From the NCBI RefSeq assembly GCF_050320075.1, contig NZ_CP190018.1: a stretch of 64,000 nt of DNA; one strand, written 5' to 3'. A program made the translations under genes and the position numbers. The stretch's first letter is position 1, and each line of letters begins with the position of its first letter. This document shows, one piece after another, positions 3,665 through 54,460 of this stretch. Below the pieces are notes generated by a model. That model made no database searches, had not been told where the DNA came from, and saw only the letters and a program-made list of their open reading frames with translations. The DNA comes from Escherichia coli (GTDB lineage: Bacteria; Pseudomonadota; Gammaproteobacteria; Enterobacterales; Enterobacteriaceae).

Positions 3665-3792
3665 GCCGCCACTATAGGTATTTGCTGGTAGAAGCTCAAC
3701 GGACAATTTATAATGGCTCAGATTAAAAAAACTAATAGGTTACACAGTGTGATCTAATTGTTAAATTCATTTAACATCAAAGTTTAAAAGCC
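3665..3792. promoter_or_regulatory. divergent gcvB / gcvA promoter region
   Basis: 128-bp AT-rich interval between the gcvB 5' end and the gcvA start; location only, sites not mapped. Confidence 0.5.
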
Positions 3793-4710
3793 ATGTCTAA
3801 ACGATTACCACCGCTAAATGCCTTACGAGTTTTTGATGCCGCAGCACGCCATTTAAGTTTCACTCGCGCAGCAGAAGAGCTTTTTGTGACCCAGGCCGCA
3901 GTAAGTCATCAAATCAAGTCTCTTGAGGATTTTCTGGGGCTAAAACTGTTCCGCCGCCGTAATCGTTCACTCCTGCTGACCGAGGAAGGGCAAAGCTATT
4001 TCCTCGATATCAAAGAGATATTTTCGCAATTAACCGAAGCGACGCGTAAACTCCAGGCCCGTAGCGCCAAGGGGGCGTTGACGGTCAGTTTACTCCCCAG
4101 TTTCGCCATTCATTGGTTGGTTCCGCGACTTTCCAGCTTTAATTCAGCTTATCCGGGAATTGACGTTCGAATCCAGGCGGTTGATCGTCAGGAAGATAAG
4201 CTGGCGGATGATGTTGATGTGGCGATATTTTATGGTCGGGGCAACTGGCCGGGGCTACGGGTGGAAAAACTGTACGCCGAATATTTATTGCCGGTGTGTT
4301 CGCCGCTACTGCTGACTGGCGAAAAACCCTTGAAGACCCCGGAAGATCTGGCTAAACATACGTTATTACATGATGCGTCGCGCCGTGACTGGCAGACATA
4401 TACCCGACAGTTGGGGTTAAATCATATCAACGTTCAGCAAGGGCCAATTTTTAGCCATAGCGCCATGGTGCTGCAAGCGGCTATCCACGGGCAGGGAGTG
4501 GCGCTGGCAAATAACGTGATGGCGCAATCTGAAATTGAGGCTGGACGTCTTGTTTGCCCGTTTAATGATGTACTGGTCAGTAAAAACGCTTTTTATCTGG
4601 TTTGTCATGACAGCCAGGCAGAACTGGGTAAAATAGCCGCCTTTCGCCAATGGATCCTGGCGAAAGCCGCTGCTGAACAAGAAAAATTCCGCTTTCGTTA
4701 TGAACAATAA
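3793..4710 (+). CDS. gcvA: LysR-family transcriptional regulator of the glycine cleavage system
   Basis: 305-aa ORF with N-terminal LysR HTH (LNALRVFDAAARHLSFTRAAEELFVTQAAVSHQIKSLE); recognised as GcvA. Confidence 0.92.
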   Translation: MSKRLPPLNALRVFDAAARHLSFTRAAEELFVTQAAVSHQIKSLEDFLGLKLFRRRNRSLLLTEEGQSYFLDIKEIFSQLTEATRKLQARSAKGALTVSLLPSFAIHWLVPRLSSFNSAYPGIDVRIQAVDRQEDKLADDVDVAIFYGRGNWPGLRVEKLYAEYLLPVCSPLLLTGEKPLKTPEDLAKHTLLHDASRRDWQTYTRQLGLNHINVQQGPIFSHSAMVLQAAIHGQGVALANNVMAQSEIEAGRLVCPFNDVLVSKNAFYLVCHDSQAELGKIAAFRQWILAKAAAEQEKFRFRYEQ

Positions 4711-46701: not shown

Positions 46702-46876
46702 AGGTCTCTAGTAATTGCAATAAGAAATAACATGGAAAGCAGTGGTGTTGTGTGAGAGTAATCACGCTTCTGCTTTTTAAAATTATTTGACAATTCGAAT
46801 ATCACACTGTGATTACGATCACATTAGCGATTATGCCCTTATGATAAAAATTATCTCCAGTTACCAGAGATAATGA

Positions 46877-46923
46877 GAAAGGTAACTTCCCTCTCGCGGG
46901 GGAAGTTACCTTTCTTTTTTTTT
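46877..46923 (+). terminator. intrinsic-terminator-like hairpin in the ygcW leader
   Basis: Perfect 15-bp stem GAAAGGTAACTTCCC / GGGAAGTTACCTTTC with 8-nt loop, followed by T9; ends 25 nt upstream of the ygcW ATG. Confidence 0.65.
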
Positions 46924-46947: not shown

Positions 46948-47733
46948 ATGTCAATCGAATCTCTCAATGCGTTCTCAATGGATTTTTTCTCCCTGAAAGG
47001 TAAAACCGCAATTGTTACCGGCGGGAATAGCGGTTTAGGCCAGGCATTTGCCATGGCGCTGGCCAAAGCAGGCGCAAATATCTTTATTCCAAGCTTCGTT
47101 AAAGATAACGGCGAAACAAAGGAAATGATTGAAAAACAGGGTGTTGAGGTGGACTTCATGCAGGTGGATATCACCGCAGAAGGCGCGCCGCAGAAGATAA
47201 TCGCCGCCTGTTGCGAACGTTTCGGTACCGTCGATATTCTGATTAACAATGCCGGTATTTGTAAGCTGAATAAGGTGCTGAACTTCGGTCGTGCCGACTG
47301 GGACCCGATGATTGATGTGAACCTGACCGCCGCATTCGAGTTAAGCTATGAAGCTGCAAAAATTATGATCCCGCAGAAAAGCGGTAAAATCATTAATATC
47401 TGTTCATTATTCTCTTACTTAGGTGGACAATGGTCACCTGCATATTCTGCCACTAAACATGCTCTTGCCGGATTCACCAAAGCTTACTGTGATGAACTAG
47501 GTCAATATAATATTCAGGTAAATGGTATTGCCCCTGGCTATTATGCAACAGATATTACGCTGGCGACACGCAGTAATCCAGAAACCAATCAGCGCGTTCT
47601 TGATCATATTCCGGCAAACCGTTGGGGCGATACTCAGGATTTAATGGGCGCAGCCGTATTCCTCGCAAGTCCGGCATCGAATTATGTCAACGGACATTTA
47701 TTAGTGGTTGATGGTGGTTATTTAGTGCGCTAA
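46948..47733 (+). CDS. ygcW: short-chain dehydrogenase/reductase (KduD / gluconate-5-dehydrogenase-like)
   Basis: ORF 46873..47733; start placed at MSIESLNAF giving 261 aa; SDR motifs TGGNSGLG and YxxxK. Confidence 0.85.
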   Translation: MSIESLNAFSMDFFSLKGKTAIVTGGNSGLGQAFAMALAKAGANIFIPSFVKDNGETKEMIEKQGVEVDFMQVDITAEGAPQKIIAACCERFGTVDILINNAGICKLNKVLNFGRADWDPMIDVNLTAAFELSYEAAKIMIPQKSGKIINICSLFSYLGGQWSPAYSATKHALAGFTKAYCDELGQYNIQVNGIAPGYYATDITLATRSNPETNQRVLDHIPANRWGDTQDLMGAAVFLASPASNYVNGHLLVVDGGYLVR

Positions 47734-47802: not shown

Positions 47803-49257
47803 ATGTCTTTATCTCGCGCAGCGATTGTCGACCAGCTAAAGGAAATTGTTGGTGCAGATCGCGTAATTACCGATGAAACAGTATTAAAGAAGAACAGTAT
47901 TGACCGTTTTCGCAAATTTCCGGATATTCATGGCATTTATACTTTGCCGATTCCGGCAGCGGTCGTAAAACTCGGTTCCACAGAACAAGTATCCCGTGTG
48001 CTGAATTTTATGAATGCGCACAAAATTAACGGTGTGCCGCGTACCGGTGCTTCCGCTACCGAAGGTGGGCTGGAAACCGTTGTGGAAAACTCGGTGGTGC
48101 TCGACGGCTCTGCCATGAATCAAATCATTAATATTGATATTGAGAATATGCAGGCCACGGCGCAATGCGGAGTTCCGCTGGAAGTGCTGGAAAACGCGTT
48201 GCGTGAAAAAGGTTACACCACGGGGCATTCTCCGCAGTCAAAGCCGCTGGCGCAGATGGGCGGCCTGGTAGCAACCCGCAGTATCGGGCAGTTCTCCACA
48301 CTCTACGGCGCAATCGAAGATATGGTCGTTGGTCTGGAAGCAGTATTGGCTGATGGCACCGTAACACGCATTAAAAACGTACCACGCCGCGCGGCAGGCC
48401 CGGACATTCGTCACATCATCATCGGCAACGAAGGTGCATTGTGCTATATCACTGAAGTAACTGTGAAAATCTTTAAGTTCACCCCGGAAAACAACCTCTT
48501 CTACGGCTATATCCTGGAAGACATGAAAACCGGCTTCAACATCCTGCGTGAAATCATGGTGGAAGGGTATCGTCCGTCGATCGCTCGTTTGTATGACGCT
48601 GAAGATGGCACCCAACACTTCACCCATTTTGCTGACGGAAAATGCGTGCTGATCTTTATGGCTGAAGGTAACCCTCGCATTGCGAAGGCGACGGGCGAAG
48701 GGATTGCTGAAATCGTGGCACGTTACCCGCAATGCCAGCGAGTGGACAGCAAGCTGATCGAAACCTGGTTTAACAACCTGAACTGGGGACCGGATAAAGT
48801 AGCTGCCGAACGTGTGCAGATCCTCAAAACCGGCAACATGGGCTTTACCACCGAAGTGTCCGGCTGCTGGAGCTGCATTCACGAAATCTACGAAAGCGTT
48901 ATTAACCGTATTCGTACCGAGTTCCCGCACGCCGACGACATCACCATGCTGGGCGGTCACTCCTCTCACAGCTACCAGAACGGCACCAACATGTACTTCG
49001 TTTACGACTACAACGTTGTTGACTGTAAGCCGGAAGAGGAAATCGACAAGTACCACAATCCGCTCAACAAAATCATCTGCGAAGAAACCATTCGCCTCGG
49101 TGGTTCGATGGTGCACCACCACGGCATTGGTAAACATCGCGTTCACTGGAGCAAGCTGGAACACGGCAGCGCGTGGACGTTGCTGGAAGGTCTGAAAAAG
49201 CAGTTCGATCCTAACGGCATTATGAATACGGGTACTATCTATCCGATTGAAAAATAA
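47803..49257 (+). CDS. ygcU: FAD-linked oxidase (GlcD / alkyl-DHAP-synthase-like)
   Basis: 484-aa ORF with FAD-binding PCMH-type domain. Confidence 0.85.
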   Translation: MSLSRAAIVDQLKEIVGADRVITDETVLKKNSIDRFRKFPDIHGIYTLPIPAAVVKLGSTEQVSRVLNFMNAHKINGVPRTGASATEGGLETVVENSVVLDGSAMNQIINIDIENMQATAQCGVPLEVLENALREKGYTTGHSPQSKPLAQMGGLVATRSIGQFSTLYGAIEDMVVGLEAVLADGTVTRIKNVPRRAAGPDIRHIIIGNEGALCYITEVTVKIFKFTPENNLFYGYILEDMKTGFNILREIMVEGYRPSIARLYDAEDGTQHFTHFADGKCVLIFMAEGNPRIAKATGEGIAEIVARYPQCQRVDSKLIETWFNNLNWGPDKVAAERVQILKTGNMGFTTEVSGCWSCIHEIYESVINRIRTEFPHADDITMLGGHSSHSYQNGTNMYFVYDYNVVDCKPEEEIDKYHNPLNKIICEETIRLGGSMVHHHGIGKHRVHWSKLEHGSAWTLLEGLKKQFDPNGIMNTGTIYPIEK

Positions 49258-49298
49258 TGTGTCAGGCAGCGTTCCGCGATGACGGGGCGTTGCCTTTT

Positions 49299-49328
49299 CG
49301 GCTTCTCAGGCGAGAAGCCGTTCTTATT
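49299..49328 (+). terminator. hairpin between ygcU and ygcS (weak terminator or attenuator)
   Basis: CGGCTTCTC-aggc-GAGAAGCCG followed by TTCTTATT. Confidence 0.45.
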
Positions 49329-49350
49329 ACCGGACAATGAAGGGATAAAG

Positions 49351-50688
49351 ATGAACACTTCACCGGTGCGAATGGATGATTTACCACTTAACCGTTTTCA
49401 CTGCCGCATTGCTGCGCTCACTTTCGGCGCACACCTGACCGACGGTTATGTCCTCGGCGTCATTGGTTACGCCATTATTCAGCTTACGCCCGCCATGCAA
49501 CTGACGCCGTTTATGGCGGGAATGATTGGCGGCTCAGCACTCCTTGGTTTGTTTCTTGGCAGCCTGGTTCTGGGCTGGATCTCCGACCATATTGGGCGAC
49601 AAAAAATCTTCACCTTCAGCTTTTTGCTGATTACGCTTGCTTCGTTTTTACAATTTTTTGCCACCACGCCAGAGCATCTTATTGGACTGCGCATTTTGAT
49701 TGGCATTGGTCTGGGAGGCGATTACTCAGTCGGTCACACCTTGCTGGCTGAATTTTCCCCGCGCCGCCACCGCGGTATTTTGCTGGGCGCGTTCAGCGTG
49801 GTGTGGACTGTAGGCTATGTGCTGGCAAGTATTGCCGGACATCACTTTATTAGCGAAAGCCCGGAGGCCTGGCGCTGGCTGCTGGCATCGGCAGCTCTGC
49901 CCGCATTGTTGATTACGTTATTACGCTGGGGAACGCCAGAATCGCCACGCTGGCTACTGCGCCAGGGGCGTTTTGCAGAAGCTCACGCTATCGTGCATCG
50001 CTATTTTGGTCCCCATGTTTTACTGGGCGATGAAGTGGCAACGGCGACCCATAAACACATCAAAACCTTGTTCTCTTCGCGCTACTGGCGGCGCACAGCG
50101 TTTAACAGCGTCTTCTTTGTCTGCCTCGTAATCCCATGGTTTGTGATTTATACCTGGCTGCCAACTATCGCCCAGACTATTGGTCTGGAAGATGCGTTGA
50201 CCGCTAGCCTGATGCTTAATGCGTTGTTAATTGTGGGTGCGCTGCTGGGATTAGTTCTGACGCACCTGCTGGCACATCGCAAATTTTTGCTGGGAAGTTT
50301 TTTGCTGCTGGCGGCAACGCTGGTAGTGATGGCTTGTTTGCCTTCCGGCAGTTCATTAACGCTGCTGCTTTTTGTTCTCTTCAGCACCACCATTTCGGCA
50401 GTCAGTAATCTGGTGGGCATTTTGCCTGCGGAAAGTTTTCCTACTGACATTCGCTCGCTGGGCGTCGGTTTTGCCACCGCCATGAGTCGGTTGGGCGCGG
50501 CGGTAAGTACTGGCCTGCTGCCGTGGGTGCTGGCGCAGTGGGGAATGCAAGTCACCTTATTGCTCCTGGCGGCAGTGTTGTTGGTTGGTTTTGTCGTGAC
50601 CTGGCTATGGGCACCAGAAACCAAAGCACTCCCGCTGGTGGCGGCGGGAAATGTTGGAGGTGCGAATGAACATTCTGTTAGCGTTTAA
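49351..50688 (+). CDS. ygcS: MFS sugar-porter-type transporter
   Basis: ORF 49279..50688; start placed at MNTSPVRMDDL giving 445 aa; 12-TM profile. Confidence 0.85.
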   Translation: MNTSPVRMDDLPLNRFHCRIAALTFGAHLTDGYVLGVIGYAIIQLTPAMQLTPFMAGMIGGSALLGLFLGSLVLGWISDHIGRQKIFTFSFLLITLASFLQFFATTPEHLIGLRILIGIGLGGDYSVGHTLLAEFSPRRHRGILLGAFSVVWTVGYVLASIAGHHFISESPEAWRWLLASAALPALLITLLRWGTPESPRWLLRQGRFAEAHAIVHRYFGPHVLLGDEVATATHKHIKTLFSSRYWRRTAFNSVFFVCLVIPWFVIYTWLPTIAQTIGLEDALTASLMLNALLIVGALLGLVLTHLLAHRKFLLGSFLLLAATLVVMACLPSGSSLTLLLFVLFSTTISAVSNLVGILPAESFPTDIRSLGVGFATAMSRLGAAVSTGLLPWVLAQWGMQVTLLLLAAVLLVGFVVTWLWAPETKALPLVAAGNVGGANEHSVSV

Positions 50689-52350: not shown

Positions 52351-53124
<774 letters not shown>

Positions 53125-53228
53125 ATCAGCATACTTGTCCTTAGCCTTCTGCAGTGACAGCTGGTAGTACAGCGTGCTTCTGGCCAGCCCTGCAGCCTTT
53201 AACAGGTCAGACTGGCAGTGTCCGCACC

Positions 53229-53750
53229 TCAGGCTCCGGATGACTTTCGTTTTTTCTCCAGCTCCTGGCGCTTTTTTTCCAGGAGATGCTCCTGCATGGC
53301 TTTCAGATATGCATTTTCTGCGCGAAGATAACGTAGCTCATTCTTCATCTCTTCCGGCGTCATGTTTGCCTCGTTTTCATGGGTATCATCAGAACGGGTC
53401 ATGCTTTTCTCCTTCCTGCGCCTGATAAAGGCCTCATTACCAGATTTGCGGTAGCCTTTTATCCAGTTTTTAACCGTGTTGTGGCTGGGAATGTTAAACC
53501 GGGCAGCTACCCGGGGTAGAGACTCAGAATGCCCGAGAGCATAAAGAACCACGCAAAGTTTATCTTCAGGAGAATAGCTACGCTTGTGTCTGCAATCCAG
53601 TGCCCGAGGACCGTGAAGAAGAAAAAGATTAATCCAGTGTGAGAGGCTGGTGTGAGAAAGTTGAAAGAGTTTTGCCGTAGAAATGATGCCTGCATGACCA
53701 GCCAGGTAATGATTTACAGCGGCAAGTTTTACTTCAAATGAATGTTTCAT
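53229..53750 (-). CDS. IS3-family transposase OrfA (HTH DNA-binding, leucine-zipper region)
   Basis: ORF 53229..53759; likely ATG start at 53748-53750 (MKHSFEVKLAAVNHY) giving 173 aa. Confidence 0.85.
   Translation of the reverse strand: MKHSFEVKLAAVNHYLAGHAGIISTAKLFQLSHTSLSHWINLFLLHGPRALDCRHKRSYSPEDKLCVVLYALGHSESLPRVAARFNIPSHNTVKNWIKGYRKSGNEAFIRRRKEKSMTRSDDTHENEANMTPEEMKNELRYLRAENAYLKAMQEHLLEKKRQELEKKRKSSGA
53271..53278 (-). other. candidate -1 programmed ribosomal frameshift site (A AAA AAG)
   Basis: Minus-strand A7G run about 45 nt upstream of the orfA stop, at the orfA/orfB overlap. Confidence 0.6.
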
Positions 53751-53884: not shown

Positions 53885-54460
53885 TCAAAGCAATTTTTTC
53901 GCTAACGTCCAGACCCCGGTATTCGTGGTGGAAAGCGCCACAACACCCGCGTTAATCGCATTACGCGCATCTTCTTCATCGCACACCAGCCCGCCGGCAA
54001 TCAGCGGTTGGCGGATTTTCTCCGTCACCCAGCCCAGCACTTTAGGCATACAGCCTGGCAGGATCTCAATACAATCCGGATTCGATTGCGCAACTTGCTT
54101 ATCAATGTTGTGAAACGAAATCGAATCAACAATAAACAGGCGATGAATACAGAAAAAACCTTCCGCTCTTGCCGCTTTCAGCATCGATGCTTTCGTGCTG
54201 ATAATGCCGTCCGCCTCGGTCACCAGTTTCAGAAACTGAATCACCACTTCTTTGTTCGATGCGCCTTCCAGCAAATCAACATGAATAAAGGCATATTTTC
54301 CGGCGTTTTTAATCTTTTTAACGATATTACTGATGGTGCAGATATTGCCGTACAACACTGAAATAAACTGGCATTCAGAATCGATTGCCAGTTGCAGGCT
54401 GGCATTATCTTTAACGGCAGCAATCACCGGATTCTGGCGGAGCAGGTGTAAGAGGGGCAT
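53885..54460 (-). CDS. ygcP: GlpP-like glycerol-3-phosphate-responsive antiterminator family protein
   Basis: 191-aa ORF recognised as YgcP (G3P-antiterminator family). Confidence 0.8.
   Translation of the reverse strand: MPLLHLLRQNPVIAAVKDNASLQLAIDSECQFISVLYGNICTISNIVKKIKNAGKYAFIHVDLLEGASNKEVVIQFLKLVTEADGIISTKASMLKAARAEGFFCIHRLFIVDSISFHNIDKQVAQSNPDCIEILPGCMPKVLGWVTEKIRQPLIAGGLVCDEEDARNAINAGVVALSTTNTGVWTLAKKLL

Follow-up and report, generated by a model that had tools for sequence, protein, structure and literature searches.

Genes and features of the locus

The hairpin described here lies between ygcU and ygcS of Escherichia coli, within a 64,000-nucleotide stretch of contig NZ_CP190018.1 that is referred to below as the window. 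The region is 100% identical to the chromosome of E. coli strain 7/2. The genes ygcW, ygcU and ygcS follow one another on the plus strand (Table 1), and ygcU ends with a TAA stop codon at 49255-49257. On the same strand, 3' of ygcS, are ygcR and ygcQ, which encode electron-transfer flavoprotein (ETF) subunits. The yqcE-ygcE genes are divergent from ygcW, and ygcP-ygcO-ygcN are convergent on ygcQ. YgcP, which is encoded in the locus as well, is a full-length member of the GlpP family (PF04309 G3P_antiterm, 210.6 bits). The ygcWUSRQ genes form a poorly studied, putative operon of sugar catabolism.

Table 1. Positions of genes and RNA features in the window
Feature	Position	Strand	Basis
yqcE leader element	46716-46654	-	Leader covariance model
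ygcW leader element	46859-46923	+	Leader covariance model
ygcW	46948-47733	+	ORF list, RefSeq annotation
ygcU CDS, FAD-linked oxidoreductase	47803-49257	+	ORF list, RefSeq, Pfam FAD_binding_4 and FAD-oxidase_C
Hairpin 1, AGGCAGCGUUCCG-CGAUGA-CGGGGCGUUGCCU	49264-49295	+	Folding; Escherichia loci
Hairpin 2, 9 bp and 4-nt loop, CGGCUUCUC-AGGC-GAGAAGCCG	49299-49320	+	Scan, folding, conservation
Interrupted U-rich tail, UUCUUAUUA	49321-49329 (MG1655 2897892-2897900)	+	Terminator-like criterion of scan
ygcS ribosome-binding region (AAGGGA) and true ATG (49351)	49340-49353	+	Cross-genus conservation, K-12 record
ygcS CDS, MFS sugar-porter-type transporter, 445 aa	49351-50688	+	ORF list, RefSeq, Pfam, curated K-12 record

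Two hairpins between ygcU and ygcS

On the plus strand, hairpin 2 reads CGGCTTCTC-AGGC-GAGAAGCCG, followed by TTCTTATTACC; it corresponds to positions 2897901-2897922 on the minus strand of MG1655. The first-pass annotation had described a 9-bp stem with a 4-nt loop and a pyrimidine-rich tail, and both the sequence and its predicted folding bear this out. The arms (49299-49307 and 49312-49320) form a perfect stem of nine Watson-Crick pairs, six of them G-C. Folded alone, the segment reached -15.6 kcal/mol, compared with -5.65 +/- 2.06 kcal/mol for a background of 200 dinucleotide shuffles (z = -4.83), and none of the shuffled sequences folded as well. Hairpin 2 is far beyond what chance would produce. 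A stem-breaking variant of its 5' arm would be CGGCTTCTC changed to CGGGAACTC.

The stem is followed by the tail TTCTTATTA. The same annotation had placed the hairpin 22 nt before ygcS. This figure holds when counting starts at the last tail nucleotide (49328) and runs to the ATG at 49351, whereas the stem itself stops 30 nt short of that ATG. The U-rich part of the tail, UUCUUAUUA, has 6 U within its first 8 nt and is broken after two U. A consensus terminator scan flagged hairpin 2 as terminator-like on the basis of 9 pairs, 6 G-C pairs and 6 T in an 8-nt tail, and the GC-rich stem-loop on the transcribed strand that is expected of an intrinsic terminator is present.

Directly upstream of hairpin 2, a second hairpin had been overlooked. 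This hairpin 1 begins 7 nt past the ygcU stop codon. Its stem of 13 bp includes three G.U pairs, the loop measures 6 nt, and UUUU comes after the stem. With an energy of -22.4 kcal/mol (z = -4.5), it is stronger than hairpin 2. Hairpin 1 was present in all Escherichia loci and in no other genus. We considered that it might be a repeat or a mobile palindrome; this was ruled out, as the segment is single-copy in E. coli, with a median of one place per genome. The minimum-energy fold of the whole 93-nt ygcU-ygcS spacer retains both hairpins, and the spacer folds at z = -4.3, compared with z = -0.86 for the 69-nt ygcW-ygcU spacer.

Conservation in the Enterobacterales

A protein-guided scan with one genome per species recovered 46 Enterobacterales loci, ranging from Escherichia to Serratia, Rahnella, Budvicia and Limnobaculum. 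In every recovered locus that holds both genes, ygcS comes directly after ygcU. The spacer between them is mostly 52-62 nt long and is filled by a hairpin, its tail and the ribosome-binding site.

In 43 usable ygcU-ygcS spacers, we searched for hairpins with 6 or more base pairs, 4 or more of them G-C. Such a hairpin was found in all 43 spacers, compared with only 5 of the 43 ygcW-ygcU spacers used as a control and an average of 8.6 of 43 in mononucleotide shuffles. The median energy of the best hairpin was -19.9 kcal/mol between ygcU and ygcS and -5.2 kcal/mol in the control spacer. In most loci, the first hairpin was located 6-10 nt past the ygcU stop codon. The tail was less uniform than the stem. 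A strict terminator-tail criterion was passed by 20 of the 43 spacers, compared with 0.4 of 43 in shuffles, and failed by the other 23; in Rahnella and in Serratia sp. DD3, no U-rich tail directly follows the first hairpin.

Within the Enterobacteriaceae, the conserved hairpin is homologous to hairpin 2 and has the consensus GGCTTCYC...GRGAAGCC. In the alignment, which includes five mis-registered rows, standard pairs still make up 91.7% of the pair cells, and double-sided changes occur at five of the nine pairs. Identity by column is 83-87% in the stem, compared with 46% in the loop and 41% in the 5' flank. Among the 26 in-register sequences, the cells that depart from Watson-Crick pairing comprise 22 G.U and 3 A.C combinations. 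As G.U pairs far outnumber A.C mismatches, we conclude that pairing is selected in the sense-strand (plus-strand) RNA.

In the distant genera Serratia, Rahnella, Limnobaculum and Budvicia, the same place is taken by GC-rich hairpins of unrelated sequence, several of them with U-runs after the stem. Many relatives have cleaner U-tracts than E. coli, in the manner of textbook terminators, for example Citrobacter sedlakii (GGTGGCTTCCCGCTCGGGAAGCCAC-TTTTTTT), Pluralibacter (ACGGCTTCCCGTGCGGGAAGCCG-TTTTTT), Mixta (...GGCCGATTTTTT) and Limnobaculum (...GGCCCGGTTTTTGTTT). An upstream A-tract is also present in several of the relatives with such terminators.

Within E. coli, a 42-nt segment around hairpin 2 was identical in 5,008 of 5,092 genomes (98%). 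The surrounding 601 nt were at least 99% identical in only 411 E. coli genomes, and about 96.5% identical in most. Like hairpin 1, the hairpin 2 segment occurs at a median of one place per E. coli genome.

A putative intercistronic terminator

A consensus scan of 49000-49400 did not identify any promoter-like site, and none was recognized between the hairpin and ygcS on reading the sequence. The short spacers and the lack of a promoter-like site suggest that ygcU and ygcS are co-transcribed, and therefore that ygcS is transcribed through the hairpin. On balance, and with modest confidence, we take the hairpin to be a leaky intercistronic intrinsic terminator within the ygcW-ygcU-ygcS-ygcR-ygcQ unit, which would also stabilize the 3' end of the upstream message.

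The proposed mechanism is as follows. Once RNA polymerase has passed the ygcU stop codon, a GC-rich hairpin would form in the nascent RNA, with a U-rich stretch behind it; in Escherichia there would be a tandem pair of hairpins. Because the U-tract UUCUUAUUA of E. coli is interrupted, only a fraction of the polymerases would be expected to be released, and the 3' ends of the released transcripts would be expected within this tail. The remaining polymerases would read into ygcS, the ribosome-binding site of which lies about 20 nt beyond. RNAs ending at the site, whether terminated there or cut within the AU-rich tail, would keep a hairpin at the 3' end, and this hairpin would shield the ygcW-ygcU message from 3' exonucleases. 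The net effect would be a fixed, graded output, with the two dehydrogenases made in excess over the transporter and the ETF subunits. The structure, its conservation in the sense RNA, the terminator-like tails of many relatives and the lack of a promoter-like site downstream are observed here; that termination occurs, that it is partial, and that it shapes the expression ratio is inferred.

Such an arrangement could explain why the dehydrogenases of ygcWUSRQ would be expressed above the transporter and the ETF subunits. It would also mean that polar or stability effects on ygcSRQ, mediated by the hairpin, are to be expected when ygcU is expressed or knocked out.

Published maps of transcript ends were inspected for the site. 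No 3' end is listed between 28978xx and 28980xx of MG1655 in the Term-seq data tabulated by Adams et al. 2021 (PMC7815308), and neither a 3' end nor processing at hairpin 2 is recorded in the TERMITe 2025, TRS 2023 and SRPS 2023 supplements. The same Term-seq tables contain a strong 3' end at 2900311 on the minus strand, 38 nt upstream of ygcW, and another at 2900556 on the plus strand, 36 nt upstream of yqcE; both are located in the U-tracts of the leaders (PMC7815308). Given how prominent the 3' end in the ygcW leader is, the silence of the Term-seq data at hairpin 2 is weak evidence: under the conditions used, most transcripts would have stopped in the ygcW leader, and little would have reached hairpin 2.

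A possible role in RNA stability or processing

The hairpin might instead act on RNA stability or processing only. Polymerase would then not stop, and an RNase E cut in UUCUUAUUA, or the stalling of 3' exonucleases at the stem, would let the ygcW-ygcU message outlive ygcSRQ, a case of selective processing and stabilization. A stem followed by an AU-rich single strand is the usual setting of RNase E cleavage. The distribution of stems and tails among the relatives is in keeping with this explanation, since a hairpin is found in every locus, and a good U-tract is not: more than half of the spacers fail the strict tail test, and some of the tails are not U-rich. For these spacers, including those of the relatives without a U-rich tail, a pure stability or processing role fits equally well. 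The lack of a reported Term-seq 3' end at hairpin 2 would also be expected.

Against this explanation, U-rich tails are strongly enriched over the shuffled sequences, and several relatives combine an A-tract, a stem and a run of 6-7 T in the manner of textbook terminators. Moreover, the hairpin 2 site is absent from the genome-wide RNase-target tables that were searched. The expected outcome also overlaps with that of the leaky terminator, as a terminated RNA would be stabilized by the same hairpin. We therefore consider a role in stability or processing alone unlikely, while still the most credible of the alternatives. RNase III acts on RNA duplexes that run almost unbroken for about 20 bp or more; as the two stems are 9 bp and 13 bp long and fold separately, an RNase III processing site was ruled out.

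The first-pass annotation had proposed an internal attenuator or an mRNA-processing site. Both halves of this proposal gain from a conserved sense-strand hairpin with a U-rich tail between co-directional genes that have no promoter-like site between them, and the in silico evidence appears to fit termination as well as processing or stabilization at hairpin 2.

Relationship to the ygcW and yqcE leaders

The leaders of ygcW and yqcE have a sequence element in common, conserved in about 40 loci, of the form RTTACYAGAGA - N4-5 - GAGAAARGTRA - variable upper stem - TYRCYTTTCTC - U8. Its terminator helix is 98.8% paired, and in the ygcW leader the terminator occupies 46875-46916 of the window. An alternative helix, in which an upstream GTTACC pairs with the GGTAAC of the terminator 5' arm, is 99.1% paired, and three of its six pairs covary. 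Judged from these alignments, both leaders are classic terminator/antiterminator switches.

It had been suggested that hairpin 2 may share the regulatory logic of these leaders. This suggestion did not hold up. A covariance model built from 53 ygcW/yqcE leaders (R1) detected both leaders of the window, with scores of 81.4 and 77.2 bits. It had no match at hairpin 2, neither in the window nor in the 46 loci, and all of its 170 matches were in the yqcE-ygcW spacer. A hidden Markov model (HMM) of the invariant 5' half of the leaders (TTACYAGAGA...GAGAAARGTRA) had no hit to any of the ygcU-ygcS spacers, even with the threshold relaxed to E <= 100. Membership of hairpin 2 in the leader family was rejected accordingly, as R1 finds both leaders at 77-81 bits and hairpin 2 nowhere.

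Two fainter resemblances were also followed. Downstream of the hairpin, TTACCGGAC...GGGGTAA resembles TTACCAGAGA...AGGTAA of the leaders, which raised the idea of a degenerate leader 5' box. This idea is unsupported: searched as a gapped pattern, it picks out the two leaders and one site in the coding sequence of ygcE and does not match downstream of the hairpin, and the 8-mer class of TTACCGGAC is common in the window (19 copies compared with 4.2 expected). Hairpin 1 gave a partial match of 11.2 bits to the leader-terminator model, confined to the upper stem, with an E value of 2.2 over the whole window and 0.0076 in a 221-nt search. It lacks the invariant parts of the leaders and was not accepted as a copy of the leader terminator; the weak resemblance is left unexplained.

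These observations bear on a further explanation, namely that the hairpin is a conditional terminator within the leader control system. YgcP, or ribosomes finishing ygcU, would decide whether the hairpin forms, and the site would be a second checkpoint for the transporter and the ETF subunits. The presence in the locus of a full-length PF04309 protein (YgcP, 210 bits) would fit. GlpP of B. subtilis acts on several 5'-UTR terminators in one regulon (PMC9604022). That both leaders of the locus are apparent terminator/antiterminator switches with Term-seq 3' ends (PMC7815308) would fit as well. In addition, with the first hairpin 6-10 nt past the ygcU stop codon in most loci, its 5' arm could be covered by a ribosome that terminates on ygcU, and hairpin 1 has at least its weak likeness to the upper leader terminator. 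If this explanation were correct, YgcP would open the ygcW leader, and read-through would then require ribosomes on ygcU or YgcP itself, so that the doses of enzyme and transporter would be set separately.

What speaks against it is that the leader models are silent at hairpin 2, that the resemblance of TTACCGGAC is unsupported, and that the match of hairpin 1 has the high window-wide E value given above. No antiterminator partner was evident in the 6-10 nt that separate the ygcU stop codon from the hairpin. We consider this explanation quite improbable. The literature searched does not describe any E. coli target of YgcP. The two leaders are probably YgcP targets, with hairpin 2 probably outside that design. 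The leader elements together with YgcP are a more promising lead than hairpin 2.

Transcription and translation starts of ygcS

A further alternative is that ygcS, ygcR and ygcQ have a transcript of their own, starting from a promoter in the 3' end of ygcU, and that the hairpin lies in its 5' UTR, where it would stabilize this mRNA or tune ygcS translation. An A/T-rich stretch, GATTGAAAAATAATG, does overlap the ygcU stop codon, and in most strains and in Citrobacter-type sequences the tail (UCUU..UACC) is predicted by RNAfold to pair weakly with the Shine-Dalgarno region of ygcS (GGUAAAGA). However, the promoter scan described above was negative in this region, and the candidate -10 lies within conserved coding sequence. 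Its conservation is uninformative because the coding sequence is itself conserved. In the window, the helix between tail and Shine-Dalgarno region is weakened by a G-to-A change at 49346. Furthermore, the U-rich tails and A-tracts seen in relatives are in keeping with a terminator and not with a 5' cap structure. A separate ygcS transcript with the hairpin in its 5' UTR is therefore very unlikely.

Whether the hairpins are intergenic depends on the start codon of ygcS. RefSeq/PGAP places it at ATG 49279, which gives a protein of 469 aa and would put both hairpins within the coding sequence. This start is carried by the RefSeq annotation of thousands of genomes. In the curated K-12 record, the start is the equivalent of 49351 and the protein has 445 aa.

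The comparison of the 46 related loci favors the shorter form. The start sequence MNTSPVRMDDLP is conserved across genera, and the protein opens with M-N/S-T/A-S-P-V-R-M-D-D-L-P. Its ribosome-binding region is AAGGGA in the window and AAGGGG in K-12 and most strains. In most other genera among the 46 loci compared, there is no in-frame start codon upstream of MNTSPVRMDDLP, and in several there is an in-frame stop three codons upstream of the conserved start. The supposed extension peptide is not conserved in the cross-genus comparison, and substitutions within Escherichia alter its amino acids and keep the base pairing. ATG 49279 itself is located in the loop of hairpin 1, and no Shine-Dalgarno-like sequence was seen at a usable distance upstream of it on reading the sequence. 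As the cross-genus comparison indicates that the start at 49279 is over-extended, we conclude that the true start is 49351 and that the hairpins are intergenic. An N-terminal extension of YgcS was thus ruled out, and ygcS as annotated by RefSeq/PGAP in thousands of E. coli genomes probably carries 24 surplus codons at its 5' end.

A 27-codon ORF was also considered. It starts at a TAATG overlap with the ygcU stop codon (49257), and it ends at the ygcS ribosome-binding site with a TGA, the last base of which lies 10 nt before the ygcS ATG. The ORF is found in most Escherichia loci, is missing or different in most others, and encodes a peptide that is not conserved; it was rejected as a conserved gene and may have a local coupling role in Escherichia. 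That the hairpin is merely coding sequence, as a 24-codon N-terminal extension of YgcS or a small bridging ORF with no function at the RNA level, is extremely unlikely, even with an in-frame ATG opening a 469-aa ORF, in light of the missing upstream starts and the upstream stops in other genera, the 445-aa K-12 protein, and the Escherichia changes that spare the pairing.

Comparison with known systems

No Rfam family matched the hairpin site. A REP/BIME, ERIC or other repeat was ruled out, as each of the two hairpins is single-copy in E. coli and neither has a REP consensus. Intercistronic stabilizer hairpins of the REP/BIME type, as between malE and malF, shield the upstream mRNA from 3' exonucleases and lead to differential expression. 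Like the malE-malF stabilizers, the ygcU-ygcS hairpin is a stable stem-loop that comes after the proximal cistron.

Compared with the ygcW and yqcE leaders, the hairpin belongs to the same locus, is likewise a terminator-type hairpin of the sense RNA, and has a pyrimidine-rich 5' arm (with a CUUCCC / GGGAAG core in many species). The TTACYAGAGA box, the lower stem GAGAAARGTRA/TYRCYTTTCTC, the U8 tract, the covarying antiterminator and mapped 3' ends are confined to the leaders, and none is shared by the ygcU-ygcS hairpin. The glpD, glpFK and glpTQ leader terminators of B. subtilis, which are controlled by GlpP, share with the present locus the GlpP-family protein and the presence of several terminators per cluster. 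GlpP targets are 5' UTRs directly after promoters and contain a GlpP-binding site (PMC9604022). Unlike these, hairpin 2 is intercistronic and has no motif in common with the two probable YgcP targets. A GlpP-type antitermination target is improbable on account of the intercistronic position and the absent leader motif.

The closest parallels appear to be partial intrinsic terminators or attenuators within E. coli operons, such as the rplL-rpoB attenuator and the rpsU-dnaG terminator. As in these systems, a GC-rich stem-loop with a U-rich tail is located between presumably co-transcribed genes with no promoter-like site after it, and a lower dose of the distal genes and a protected 3' end of the proximal message would be expected. 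The ygcU-ygcS element differs from them in that termination is predicted, the U-tract UUCUUAUUA is interrupted, the hairpins are in tandem in Escherichia, and the operon is itself gated by a leader terminator. The hairpin would thus be an ordinary, newly found case of a conserved intra-operon element of the terminator type, unrelated to the regulated leaders of the same locus.

Insertions and a deletion between ygcU and ygcS

Two hairpins lie between the ygcU stop codon and ygcS. Hairpin 1 (49264-49295) is an insertion of about 35 nt that is found in Escherichia only; it follows the ygcU stop and precedes the ancestral hairpin (hairpin 2, 49299-49320). Its resemblance to the ygcW leader terminator, in the upper stem and the 3' arm (GTTGCCTTT), scored 11.2 bits, which is weak and non-significant.

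In four of the related loci, long imperfect palindromic insertions separate the ygcU stop from the ancestral hairpin, and in all four the hairpin is kept beside the insertion. Similar palindromic insertions are present in the yqcE leaders of K. spallanzanii (L011) and C. youngae (L012). By their sequence (…GTGACTGGGG…AGCCAAC…) and the ERIC consensus, these insertions resemble ERIC/IRU elements. Further downstream, a transposase gene of IS1397, an insertion sequence known to target REP/BIME sequences, is annotated in the matching strain 7/2.

A deletion was seen in one strain, E. coli 2015C-4136CT1, in which the sequence from the last ygcU codons into ygcS codon 25 (equivalent to about 49246-49420 of the window) is missing, taking out both hairpins; ygcU of this strain is annotated as a pseudogene.

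Features of the window and of related loci (insertions in the coordinates of the respective locus)
Feature	Location	Position	Strand	Remark
yqcE leader element	window	46716-46654	-	RNA element of about 65 nt common to both leaders
ygcW leader element	window	46859-46923	+	RNA element of about 65 nt common to both leaders
27-codon ORF	window	49257-49340	+	start at TAATG overlap with ygcU stop; TGA in ygcS ribosome-binding region
IS1397 transposase gene (IS3 family)	window	52402-53750	-	annotation in matching strain 7/2; between ygcQ and ygcP
ygcP	window	53885-54460	-	GlpP-family "glycerol-3-phosphate responsive antiterminator", full-length, PF04309
Palindromic insertion	L011, Klebsiella spallanzanii	3816-3950
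Palindromic insertion	L014, Enterobacter sp. 10-1	3748-3950
Palindromic insertion	L041, Raoultella terrigena	3828-3950
Palindromic insertion	L051, Citrobacter koseri	3689-3750

Start of ygcS and a short ORF across the hairpins

In the E. coli genomes examined, RefSeq/PGAP annotates ygcS as a protein of 469 aa starting at 49279. This model is probably 24 codons too long (49279-49350), because cross-genus sequence comparison and the curated K-12 record favour a start at 49351 and a product of 445 aa. The Shine-Dalgarno region of ygcS reads AAGGGAT in the window strain and AAGGGGT in K-12 and most E. coli, owing to an A instead of a G at 49346. The A weakens both the Shine-Dalgarno sequence and a weak helix that this region is predicted to form with the hairpin tail.

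The 27-codon ORF spans both hairpins. Most Escherichia loci have it, while most other genera lack it or have a different version; comparison of its peptide across loci revealed no conservation.

The ygcW and yqcE leaders and YgcP

The leader element has a conserved layout, RTTACYAGAGA-N4-5-GAGAAARGTRA-variable upper stem-TYRCYTTTCTC-U8, and is also carried by loci L007-L051, at about 1000-1650 of each locus. Among related loci, pairing reaches 98.8% in the terminator helix and 99.1% in the alternative antiterminator helix, where 3 of 6 pairs covary. RNA 3' ends have been mapped to the U-tracts of both leaders by Term-seq in K-12 (Adams 2021). Rfam contains no family for the element.

The yqcE-ygcW divergent spacer also contains a near-perfect palindrome, TGTGATTACGATCACA (46808-46823), which by its sequence looks like a CRP site. 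In the literature, yqcE-ygcE is listed among CRP-activated genes, and sites in this spacer are discussed.

The ygcP product matches PF04309 over its full length with 210.6 bits. The literature searched on GlpP-type antiterminators contained no joint mention of ygcP and antitermination. The targets of the GlpP-like YgcP are probably the ygcW and yqcE leader elements.
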